From IMG/VR virus record IMGVR_UViG_2541047722_000007: a stretch of DNA of 5,134 nucleotides; one strand, 5' to 3'. Positions 1 to 5,134 of the stretch are shown here, piece by piece. The DNA is from a virus (Duplodnaviria; Heunggongvirae; Uroviricota; Caudoviricetes). The position numbers were made by a program, and so were the translations under genes. Position 1 is the first letter of the stretch. Each line of letters opens with the position of its first letter. The notes under the pieces are model-generated. The model searched no databases. It was not told the origin of the DNA and saw nothing but the letters and a program-made list of their open reading frames with translations.

Positions 1-179
1 AAGCGGAGGTAATACACCGTAAGAGCTGGAAAAACCGTGCAGAAGTGGAACTGGCCACACTCACGTGGGTGGACTGGTATAACAATCGACGATTGCTGGA
101 AAGGCTGGGCCATACTCCTCCGGCAGAAGCAGAAAAAGCTTATTATGCTTCCATCGGAAACGATGATCTGGCAGCCTGA
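1..179 (+). CDS. insF: IS3 transposase OrfB (InsF), C-terminal fragment; 5' end lies outside the window
   Basis: Open frame from the window edge translating ...AEVIHRKSWKNRAEVELATLTWVDWYNNRRLLERLGHTPPAEAEKAYYASIGNDDLAA*, stop TGA at 177-179. Recognised from memory as the IS3 InsF C-terminus. Confidence 0.85.
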   Translation, partial: AEVIHRKSWKNRAEVELATLTWVDWYNNRRLLERLGHTPPAEAEKAYYASIGNDDLAA

Positions 180-182
180 GTT

Positions 183-221
183 CACAGATAAAACACTCTC
201 CAGGAAACCCGGGGCGGTTCA
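183..221. repeat. IS3 terminal inverted repeat (IRR, ~39 bp)
   Basis: CACAGATAAAACACTCTCCAGGAAACCCGGGGCGGTTCA; its reverse complement TGAACCGCCCCGGGTTTCC... begins the second copy at 5033. Confidence 0.7.
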
Positions 222-309
222 GTGGATGCAAAAGGCGTAAGCCCAATATTTGATACCAGACCTCTCCGCGCCGCCATGATTGTCTTTCTCCTGATGCAGG
301 AGGCCAATA

Positions 310-504
310 ATGCTTAGCCCATCTCAATCCCTTCAATACCTGAAAGAAAGCATAGAGCGGGCTTCAATGTGCACAGAGTGGATTCTATCTAGGTTTAGCG
401 CATACAGAAGATTGCCGGTAAAGGGCATGCCAAGCAAGTCGATGCTGCATATGCAAAAGAATGCGCGCTGGAAGGTATGGCGAGAACACAGGTTATGTGG
501 CTGA
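310..504 (+). CDS. hypothetical 64-aa ORF; possibly the 5' part of a frameshifted ybcO-like gene
   Basis: ATG at 310 preceded by a strong Shine-Dalgarno AGGAGG (297-302, 7-nt spacer); stop TGA 502-504. No recognisable homology by eye; overlaps the frame-0 remnant at 399-527. Confidence 0.3.
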
Positions 505-527
505 AAGAGGGGGTTATTAAGGCGTGA
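399..527 (+). pseudogene. 3' remnant of the gene that normally precedes rusA (ybcO-like); no start codon in frame
   Basis: 43-codon open stretch ...[24 protein letters not shown] with stop TGA 525-527 overlapping the rusA GTG start (GTGA), the overlap I recall for ybcO-rusA. In-frame stops at 390-392 and 396-398 close it upstream. Homology is from memory only. Confidence 0.3.
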
Positions 528-886
528 ATACCTACAGCATCACATTACCCTGGCCTCCGAGCAATAATCGCTATTACCGCCATAATCGCGGGCGCACGCA
601 CGTCAGCGCAGAGGGGCAGGCATACCGCGATAACGTCGCCCGAATCATTAAAAACGCAATGCTGGATATCGGCCTGGCTATGCCTGTGAAAATCCGCATT
701 GAGTGCCACATGCCGGATCGCCGTCGCCGTGACCTGGATAATCTGCAAAAAGCCGCTTTTGACGCACTCACTAAAGCAGGTTTCTGGCTGGATGATGCTC
801 AGGTCGTTGATTACCGCGTTGTGAAGATGCCTGTTACCAAAGGTGGGAGGCTGGAACTGACCATCACCGAAATGGGGAATGAATGA
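524..886 (+). CDS. rusA: RusA, crossover junction endodeoxyribonuclease (Holliday-junction resolvase) of DLP12-type prophage
   Basis: 120-aa product [42 protein letters not shown]... matches RusA as I recall it. GTG start at 524; only a weak/distant SD (GAGG ~13 nt upstream). Confidence 0.93.
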
Positions 887-3351: not shown

Positions 3352-3567
3352 ATGAAATCCATGGATAAGTTAACAACGGGTGTCGCCTATGGTACCTCAG
3401 CAGGTAGTGCCGGGTACTGGTTTTTACAGTTGCTCGATAAAGTCACGCCCTCACAGTGGGCGGCAATAGGTGTGCTGGGTAGCCTGGTATTTGGCCTGCT
3501 GACGTACCTGACAAACCTTTATTTCAAGATTAAAGAAGATAAGCGCAAGGCTGCGAGAGGTGAATAA
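3352..3567 (+). CDS. essD: Class II holin / pinholin (phage 21 S21-type; DLP12 EssD), 71 aa, with dual-start motif
   Basis: [71 protein letters not shown]; Met1 and Met4 give the antiholin/holin pair; two predicted TMDs; SD GAGGTGGGG upstream. Confidence 0.92.
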
Positions 3568-4064
3568 TGCCTCCATCATTACGAAAAGCCGTTGCTGCTG
3601 CTATTGGTGGCGGAGCAATTGCTATAGCATCAGTGTTAATCACTGGCCCAAGTGGTAACGATGGTCTGGAAGGTGTCAGCTACATACCATACAAAGATAT
3701 TGTTGGTGTATGGACTGTATGTCACGGGCATACAGGAAAAGACATCATGCTCGGTAAAACGTATACCAAAGCAGAATGCAAAGCCCTCCTGAATAAAGAC
3801 CTTGCCACGGTCGCCAGACAAATTAACCCGTACATCAAAGTCGATATACCGGAAACAATGCGCGGCGCTCTTTACTCATTCGTTTACAACGTGGGTGCTG
3901 GCAATTTCAGAACATCGACGCTTCTTCGCAAAATAAACCAGGGCGATATCAAAGGCGCATGTGATCAGCTACGTCGCTGGACATATGCTGGCGGTAAGCA
4001 ATGGAAAGGTCTCATGACTCGTCGTGAGATTGAGCGTGAAATCTGTTTGTGGGGTCAGCAATGA
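3567..4064 (+). CDS. rrrD: SAR (signal-anchor-release) endolysin, lysozyme R21 type (DLP12 RrrD), 165 aa
   Basis: N-terminal Gly/Ala-rich SAR domain [20 protein letters not shown]; E35, D44 and T50 present at the positions of the R21 catalytic triad; ATG overlaps the holin stop (TAATG). Confidence 0.95.
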
Positions 4065-4522
4065 ACAGAGTAACCGCGATTATCTCCGCTCTGGTTATCT
4101 GCATCATCGTCTGCCTGTCATGGGCTGTTAATCATTACCGTGATAACGCCATTACCTACAAAGCCCAGCGCGACAAAAATGCCAGAGAACTGACGCTGGC
4201 GAACGCGGTAATTACTGACATACAGATGCGTCAGCGTGATGTTGCTGCGCTCGATGCAAAATACACGAAGGAGTTAGCTGATGCGAAAGCTGAAAATGAT
4301 GCTCTGCGTGATGATGTTGCCGCTGGTCGTCGTCGGTTGCACATCAAAGCAGTCTGTCAGTCAGTGCGTGAAGCCACCACCGCCTCCGGCGTGGATAATG
4401 CAGCCTCCCCCCGACTGGCAGACACCGCTGAACGGGATTATTTCACCCTCAGAGAGAGGCTGATCACTATGCAAAAACAACTGGAAGGAACCCAGAAGTA
4501 TATTAATGAGCAGTGCAGATAG
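4061..4522 (+). CDS. rzpD: Spanin inner-membrane subunit Rz (i-spanin; DLP12 RzpD), 153 aa
   Basis: [24 protein letters not shown]-terminal TMD followed by a charged, coiled-coil-like periplasmic domain; ATG at 4061 overlaps the endolysin stop (ATGA). The GTG at 4049 in the ORF track is probably an extension. Confidence 0.9.
4281..4463 (+). CDS. rzoD: Spanin outer-membrane lipoprotein Rz1 (o-spanin; DLP12 RzoD), 60 aa, fully embedded in Rz in the +1 frame
   Basis: [20 protein letters not shown] (lipobox ending in Cys) followed by a proline-rich mature region (PPPPP, PPP); AAGGAG SD 8 nt upstream of the ATG. Confidence 0.85.
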
Positions 4523-4553: not shown

Positions 4554-4847
4554 TTATTGTGAGCAATACACACGCGCTTCCAGCGGAGTATAAATGCCTA
4601 AAGTAATAAAACCGAGCAATCCATTTACGAATGTTTGCTGGGTTTCTGTTTTAACAACATTTTCTGCACCACCACAAATTTTTGCTGCATCGACAGTTTT
4701 CTTCTGCCCAATTCCCGAAACGAAGAAATGATGGGTGATGGTTTCCTTTGGTGTTACTGCTGTAGGTTTGTTTCCAACAGTAAACGTCTGTTGAGCACAT
4801 CCTGTAATAAGCATTGCCAGAGCGGCAGAAAACAACATTTTTTTCAT
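4554..4847 (-). CDS. borD: Bor lipoprotein (serum-resistance moron of lambdoid phages; DLP12 BorD), 97 aa
   Basis: MKKMLFSAALAMLITGCAQQTFTV... lipobox LITGC; C-terminal ...GIYTPLEARVYCSQ; ATG at 4847 with AGGA SD. The ORF track's start at 4895 is a 16-codon extension. Confidence 0.92.
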   Translation of the reverse strand: MKKMLFSAALAMLITGCAQQTFTVGNKPTAVTPKETITHHFFVSGIGQKKTVDAAKICGGAENVVKTETQQTFVNGLLGFITLGIYTPLEARVYCSQ

Positions 4848-5032: not shown

Positions 5033-5134
5033 TGAACCGCCCCGGGTTTCCTGGAGAGTGTTTTATCTGTGAACTCAGGCTGCCAGATCATCGTTTCCGA
5101 TGGAAGCATAATAAGCTTTTTCTGCTTCTGCCGG
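5033..5134 (-). mobile_element. IS3 right-hand end, partial, inverted relative to the copy at 1-221; element continues beyond the 3' window edge
   Basis: 5033-5134 is the exact reverse complement of 120-221 (102 bp); starts TGAACCGCCCCGGG at 5033. Confidence 0.85.
5075..5134 (-). CDS. insF: IS3 transposase OrfB (InsF), C-terminal fragment (19 codons plus stop); 5' end outside the window
   Basis: Reverse complement encodes ...PAEAEKAYYASIGNDDLAA*, identical to the left-copy terminus. Confidence 0.8.
   Translation of the reverse strand, partial: PAEAEKAYYASIGNDDLAA

Follow-up and report, generated by a model that had tools for sequence, protein, structure and literature searches.

The position of an IS629/IS1203-like element upstream of a prophage rusA gene is probably an incidental product of insertion sequence activity

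An insertion sequence (IS) that ends shortly upstream of the resolvase gene rusA was found in a stretch of viral DNA of 5134 bp, analysed here over its full length (the window). In our view this juxtaposition probably arose incidentally, through the activity of the IS in a lambdoid prophage that is in decay, and is not a case of the activation that is known from the rus suppressors. IS activation of rusA as a phenomenon has been known since those suppressors were described (PMC1636454), and if the IS drove rusA here, the arrangement would be their natural counterpart: an IS by which a prophage gene is rewired to serve DNA repair in the host. The evidence favours the ordinary alternative, namely IS-driven erosion of a prophage in a lineage that is rich in this IS. 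A selected or functional activation of rusA is not supported, and no line of the evidence obtained favours read-through over chance.

The window represents the nin-to-lysis segment of a lambdoid prophage, in which one IS is present twice, in inverted orientation, with its right end at either edge. Gene calls from Pfam, from PHROGs and from the annotation of near-identical genomes in RefSeq are consistent and yield the following features:

1-221, + strand: right end of the IS (Pfam rve_2/rve_3; copies in relatives)
222-317, + strand: 3' remnant of ninX, the last 96 of 342 nt (phrog_444, E = 8.9e-11; partial ninX in FY26 and NCTC11151)
310-504, + strand: ninF-like ORF of 64 aa (phrog_672 match over residues 1-22; AGGAGG ribosome-binding site)
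~438-527, + strand: C-terminal remnant of ybcO/DUF1364 (Pfam YbcO, positions 62-92 of 92)
524-886, + strand: rusA, Holliday-junction resolvase of 120 aa with a GTG start (Pfam RusA, E = 6.9e-23)
883-1023, + strand: ylcG, its start overlapping the rusA stop (annotation in relatives; phrog_2705, E = 6.6e-20)
1109-1492, + strand: quuD, Q-type late antiterminator (Pfam Phage_antitermQ, E = 6.7e-54)
1681-2763, - strand: nmpC/ompC-type porin gene, intact
3352-4522: essD, rrrD, and rzpD with rzoD
4554-4847, - strand: iss/bor
5033-5134, - strand: right end of the second IS copy, inverted, downstream of iss (reverse complement of window 120-221)

The prophage belongs to the icd-integrated, iss-carrying type of the B2 ExPEC/APEC strains (e.g. 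CFT073), and at least 80% of the window is present in more than 1300 complete genomes. A scan of the window against Rfam returned no family above its threshold. The porin gene is whole in the window, and its counterpart in K-12 DLP12 is interrupted by IS5 (L007 10530-12826). A plasmid record labelled Bacillus thuringiensis (HM037272.1, 58002-60251) shows 94% identity to the E. coli porin and lysis-gene block; the match is probably due to contamination or misassembly of that public record.

The preliminary description had placed IS3 about 300 bp upstream of rusA in the same orientation. The distance (302 bp, from the IS end at 221 to the rusA start at 524) and the shared strand were recovered, but the element, judged by its sequence, is an IS629/IS1203-like member of the IS3 family and not IS3. 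Window positions 3-176 encode the C-terminus of orfB, which is the last part of an integrase core of the rve type (DDE; Pfam rve_2/rve_3), and the frame stops at 177-179; the right inverted repeat (~196-221) is imperfect and leads to the 3' end of the element, which reads ...CCCGGGGCGGTTCA (final bases GGTTCA). This end is 100% identical to that of full copies in FY26, EC21GDE043 and strain 51489. The full element, as recovered from FY26, measures 1310 bp, has the ends TGAACCGCC.../...GGCGGTTCA and begins with the left inverted repeat TGAACCGCCCCGGGAATCC...; the 14 terminal bases are common to both ends (~22/26 overall, with TG...CA termini). The annotation of full copies includes a programmed frameshift as well as a frameshift pseudoknot, and copies of the element are flanked by target duplications of GTG (S1-CAM-02-A), GAC (51489) and GCGC (downstream of iss). 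It thus carries the characteristics of the IS3 family: a DDE (rve) orfA/orfB transposase with -1 frameshift, imperfect TG...CA repeats and duplications of 3-4 bp. IS3 proper, taken to have a length of ~1258 bp, the ends TGATCTTACC.../...GGTAGGATCA and a nucleotide sequence similar to that of K-12 IS3, was rejected: the full element had no blastn match to K-12 IS3C, and both the ends and the length of 1310 bp are different. For IS629/IS1203 the criteria were a length of 1310 bp and a nucleotide identity with a reference copy at the level of isoforms (~95% or more); the identity to the IS629/IS1203-type copy in O26:H11 11368 is 95.3% over 1310 bp, and neighbouring copies in STEC carry the annotation IS1203 or IS629 family.

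The rusA gene itself is intact and identical to that of K-12 DLP12 (b0550) over 363/363 nt and 120/120 aa, and the PF05866 domain (E = 6.9e-23) together with the full-length identity to the characterised E. coli enzyme identifies the product as a RusA resolvase. As described before, the gene has a GTG start (524) that overlaps an upstream stop codon (TGA, 525-527, read as GTGA) and a weak Shine-Dalgarno (SD) sequence, the only SD-like run being GAGGGGG (507-513), which precedes the start by 10 nt. The overlapping TGA is the stop of the ybcO remnant. The proposed dependence of rusA on upstream translation is weakly founded: the frame that ends in this TGA is open from 399 only and its sole start codon, ATG 474, has no usable SD, so that translational coupling of rusA to it is unlikely in any member of the lineage.

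The gene between the IS and rusA had been described as decayed, and remnants of ninX, a ninF-like gene and ybcO are indeed what the gap contains. The decay of the latter two is, on the comparisons made here, ancestral and unrelated to the IS, because the same sequence occurs at 98-100% identity in prophages without the IS and in lambdoid phages that have been isolated. A ninF-like N-terminus is joined out of frame to the C-terminal remnant of ybcO/DUF1364 (310-527). The resulting 64-aa ORF is preceded by AGGAGG (299-304) at a spacing of 5 nt, starts with ATG at 310, ends at 504, 20 nt before the GTG of rusA, and carries the name 'protein ninF' in the annotation of phages ev207 and ev099. The ybcO remnant is an annotated pseudogene in every examined relative with a ninX-type prophage, whether the IS is present or not, and in the IS-free Combat2C1 ninX is intact and the ninF'/ybcO' fusion remnant is unchanged. 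For positions 222-530 the identity with isolated lambdoid phages is 98-100% (ev207, ev017, PhiR57_1 and mEp332 among them), and rusA therefore occupies the same context in isolated, sequenced phages. Over the 80 nt immediately 5' of rusA a single base differs from K-12 (one mismatch to K-12 ybcO over its last 80 nt). A second, distinct RusA-family gene is located next to a Q antiterminator in another prophage of NCTC11151 (L013 3203-3568), and that genome thus has more than one dormant resolvase gene.

Among 5426 complete genomes the junction between the IS and ninX was found in FY26 and NCTC11151 only. Both read GGTTCA/GTGTGTGG, whereas the window reads GGTTCA/GTGG and is without four bases (GTGT); the exact version of the window had no match among the 5426 genomes. 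The four-base difference could be due to slippage in the GT run, to a further small adjacent deletion or to an assembly difference. In FY26 and NCTC11151 the left flank of the IS is not ninX, it is the replication gene O, truncated at about nt 552; the flanks show no target duplication (CAG vs GTG), and about 3.5 kb is absent relative to the IS-free Combat2C1 (the rest of O, P, ren, ninB, a methylase gene, ninE and most of ninX). A simple insertion at the junction was rejected on the basis of this flank and the lack of a duplication, and because of these two features and the loss of ~3.5 kb the junction was made by, or together with, a deletion. For IS629, extensive deletions next to an element that itself stays intact are documented (PMC9330008). 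The genomes that bear the junction carry 14-28 copies of the IS end (vs a median of 3), and related strains display differing IS-bounded truncations as well as an inversion of the same prophage.

Gene O carries an IS junction in EC21GDE043 as well. The junctions O'/IS in FY26 (L001 4911/4912) and IS/'O in EC21GDE043 (L003 5221/5222) lie 2 bp apart and map to L002 2496-2499, where the target AATTCAG resembles the IS end GGTTCA. This target is either a second hot spot, or it received one insertion that was followed by a small loss; a single ancestral insertion common to both strains was considered and could not be established, given the 2-bp offset and the lack of a common duplication. In NCTC11151 a truncated and a full copy of the IS stand in tandem beside iss, with an int remnant and icd on that side (L005 11037-13502), and the prophage segment has therefore undergone an inversion or rearrangement between copies of the IS.

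The position of the IS can be explained from the target itself. In the unrelated strain S1-CAM-02-A, of which the prophage is 6.6% diverged from that of the window, an identical IS occupies the identical position in ninX (window 221/222) and is reversed, with the GTG target cleanly duplicated (L009 1311-2620). This points to the (GT)3 run of ninX (TGGTGTGTGG) as a reused IS target, an insertion hot spot, and such reuse would account for the position of the IS without invoking rusA. We surveyed the 5426 complete genomes with two queries, the right end of the IS plus the 5' end of rusA, and the left end of the reversed IS plus the same piece of rusA. The survey covers one IS type (IS629-like) in a dozen genomes, within ~620 bp upstream of rusA, and gave the following:

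IS toward rusA: 5 genomes, 4 independent junctions, at 306 (two genomes), 409, ~500 and 558 bp upstream
IS away from rusA: 7 genomes, ~6 independent junctions, at 191 (two genomes), 306, 344, 401, 444 and 524 bp upstream

Within this range and these dozen genomes the IS629-like elements upstream of rusA show no orientation bias. The proximity and the orientation of the IS relative to rusA are no more than chance would give.

The alternative that survives best is that transcription from the right end of the IS (from the transposase promoter or a cryptic internal one) crosses the 302-bp gap and raises RusA to a junction-resolving level, as in rus-1 and rus-2; we consider this unlikely. The background is correct, in that rusA of DLP12 is quiescent in K-12 and upstream insertions of IS2 or IS10 activate it and suppress ruv mutations (PMC1636454, PMC2265524), which provides a precedent for the identical gene. 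It was also rightly noticed that the transposase reads toward rusA: its frame stops at 177-179 and the element ends at 221, on the strand on which rusA starts at 524. A terminator-like hairpin was not found on the + strand between 150 and 560, and transposase transcripts could therefore run into rusA. Rho-dependent polarity across the gap would be unlikely, because the ORF with the strong ribosome-binding site (310-504) covers most of it and ends just before the GTG. Moreover, the ends of IS3-family elements are rich in proto-promoters (PMC12095673), and an extended -10-like sequence, TGGTATAAC, is present at 75-83. That sequence is the best candidate on the + strand and misses the conserved final T. 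No consensus sigma-70 promoter was detected on the + strand of 1-300, the junction included, in a type of scan that non-canonical and weak promoters escape. A hybrid promoter at the junction was evaluated as well: the IS end provides TTCAGT as a -35 and there is no -10 at a usable spacing, neither in the window nor in the GTGT variant of FY26. The outward promoter P3R of IS3 (TTGGTG/CAATTT), which points out of the right end in the direction of the transposase (PMC12095673, PMC8860574), was rejected as a driver of rusA, as there is no sequence similarity and the right-end motifs of IS3 (TTGGTG/CAATTT and TTTAAT/TACAAT) do not occur in window 1-221. The element is not IS3, IS2 or IS10; in a literature search of titles and abstracts no outward promoter of IS629/IS1203 was found, and PMC9330008 describes none. 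Since an outward consensus promoter is lacking, the element's own transposase promoter is left as the only possible feed for rusA. Some weak read-through from the IS into rusA would be possible; that it is measurable and meaningful seems rather improbable to us.

Other observations also argue against an activation of rusA by the IS. The natural insertions lack an orientation bias and the same target was used in reverse, and the upstream context seen in the window serves rusA in isolated lambdoid phages. Because quuD lies downstream of rusA on the same strand, read-through that reached it would express the antiterminator too. RuvA blocks RusA in vivo by shielding the junctions (PMC2265524), so that a ruv+ host would gain little from rusA expression; ruvC, ruvA and ruvB are intact in the nearest genome, NCTC11151, and a selective benefit is thus not expected. 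The natural pair formed by the window type and S1-CAM-02-A, in which the same IS is reversed at the same base pair, offers a ready control for the read-through idea, and a cheap test is possible. On the - strand at 200-212 the window has a terminator-like hairpin with a T-run (CCGGGTTTCCTGG AGAGTGTTTT) that is directed inward across the right inverted repeat; transcription that enters the IS from outside, antisense to the transposase gene, could end there.

Still less probable, in our estimation, is that the IS acts chiefly as a polar block and deletion agent, which locks the prophage in place and keeps the iss and porin cargo without the risk of lysis; on induction, the IS would then lower, and not raise, the transcription from pR into rusA and quuD. 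With O truncated and P gone, the prophage would be locked in place. In FY26 and NCTC11151 P, ren and nin genes are absent and the repressor, cro, cII and the N-side genes are kept; further IS copies replace the int side and others are found downstream of iss, and in related strains the same prophage is truncated in several distinct ways, each bounded by an IS. Against this view, no terminator was seen on the + strand in the last 221 nt of the IS, and there is no sign of selection for immobilisation over neutral decay. It is very improbable that, with the (GT)3 run as a true hot spot for IS629-like elements, read-through from an IS directed toward rusA gives constitutive low-level RusA, and possibly Q, from a repressed and immobilised prophage; if true, natural APEC/ExPEC lineages would get a second Holliday-junction resolvase that is relevant under DNA damage.

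The second IS copy (L001 11037-12346) was introduced by simple insertion, as the junction and the GCGC duplication in full-length relatives (L001, L003 and L004) indicate, and is present downstream of iss in at least 5 complete genomes. Together the two copies enclose a block of 4.8 kb (rusA, quuD, the porin gene, the lysis genes and iss) with their right ends facing inward, like in a composite transposon. A role of this block as a composite transposon on plasmids was not borne out, as a search of plasmids gave no IS-bounded copy and the large matches were chromosome-sized records.

We therefore return to the incidental origin, for which we propose the following course of events. In a lineage with many IS629/IS1203-like copies, one IS end would have attacked a preferred target, GTG within the (GT)3 run of ninX, after which the ~3.5 kb between an IS copy in O and the ninX target would have been lost, either by intramolecular transposition (adjacent deletion) or by recombination of two direct copies. 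This would have left the right end of the IS at 302-306 bp from rusA, and rusA would have retained the exact upstream context that it has in IS-free prophages and isolated phages. Any IS-derived transcription of rusA should then originate from the transposase promoter and read through the right end, which is possible and probably weak, and its effect on the phenotype of a ruvABC+ cell should be small.

Compared with known systems, the window departs from a standard lambdoid nin region (ninX-ninF-ybcO-rusA-ylcG-Q) in two respects: ninX is interrupted by the IS at nt 247 of 342, and the sequence from the middle of O up to the cut point in ninX is absent in the IS-bearing relatives. From 222 on, the gene order is conserved and the sequence is 98-100% identical to that of isolated phages, and also to that of more than 1000 IS-free prophages. 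The element resembles IS629/IS1203 in length (1310 bp), TG...CA ends, an orfA/orfB organisation with programmed frameshift and target duplications of 3-4 bp, and differs by ~5% divergence from the STEC copies; NCBI annotates the window-type element only as 'IS3 family transposase'. The large adjacent deletion with an intact IS is a described outcome of IS629 (PMC9330008). With the P3R system of IS3 the element shares the IS family, but the two elements have no sequence similarity and the promoter motifs are absent, and since the element is not IS3 the documented outward promoter of IS3 does not apply. The differences with rus-1 (IS2) and rus-2 (IS10) concern the IS, which is IS629/IS1203-like and has no recognisable outward promoter, either of its own or at the junction, in the consensus scan of the + strand of 1-300; the origin, since the suppressors were selected in a ruv mutant whereas the window type is from a natural isolate lineage with intact ruvABC; and the junction, which was formed with a deletion rather than by simple insertion. 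What the window has in common with them is an IS inserted upstream of rusA (IS end at 221, rusA start at 524), full nucleotide identity of rusA itself, its GTG start included, and, apart from the one base that differs from K-12, the same 80 nt immediately upstream.
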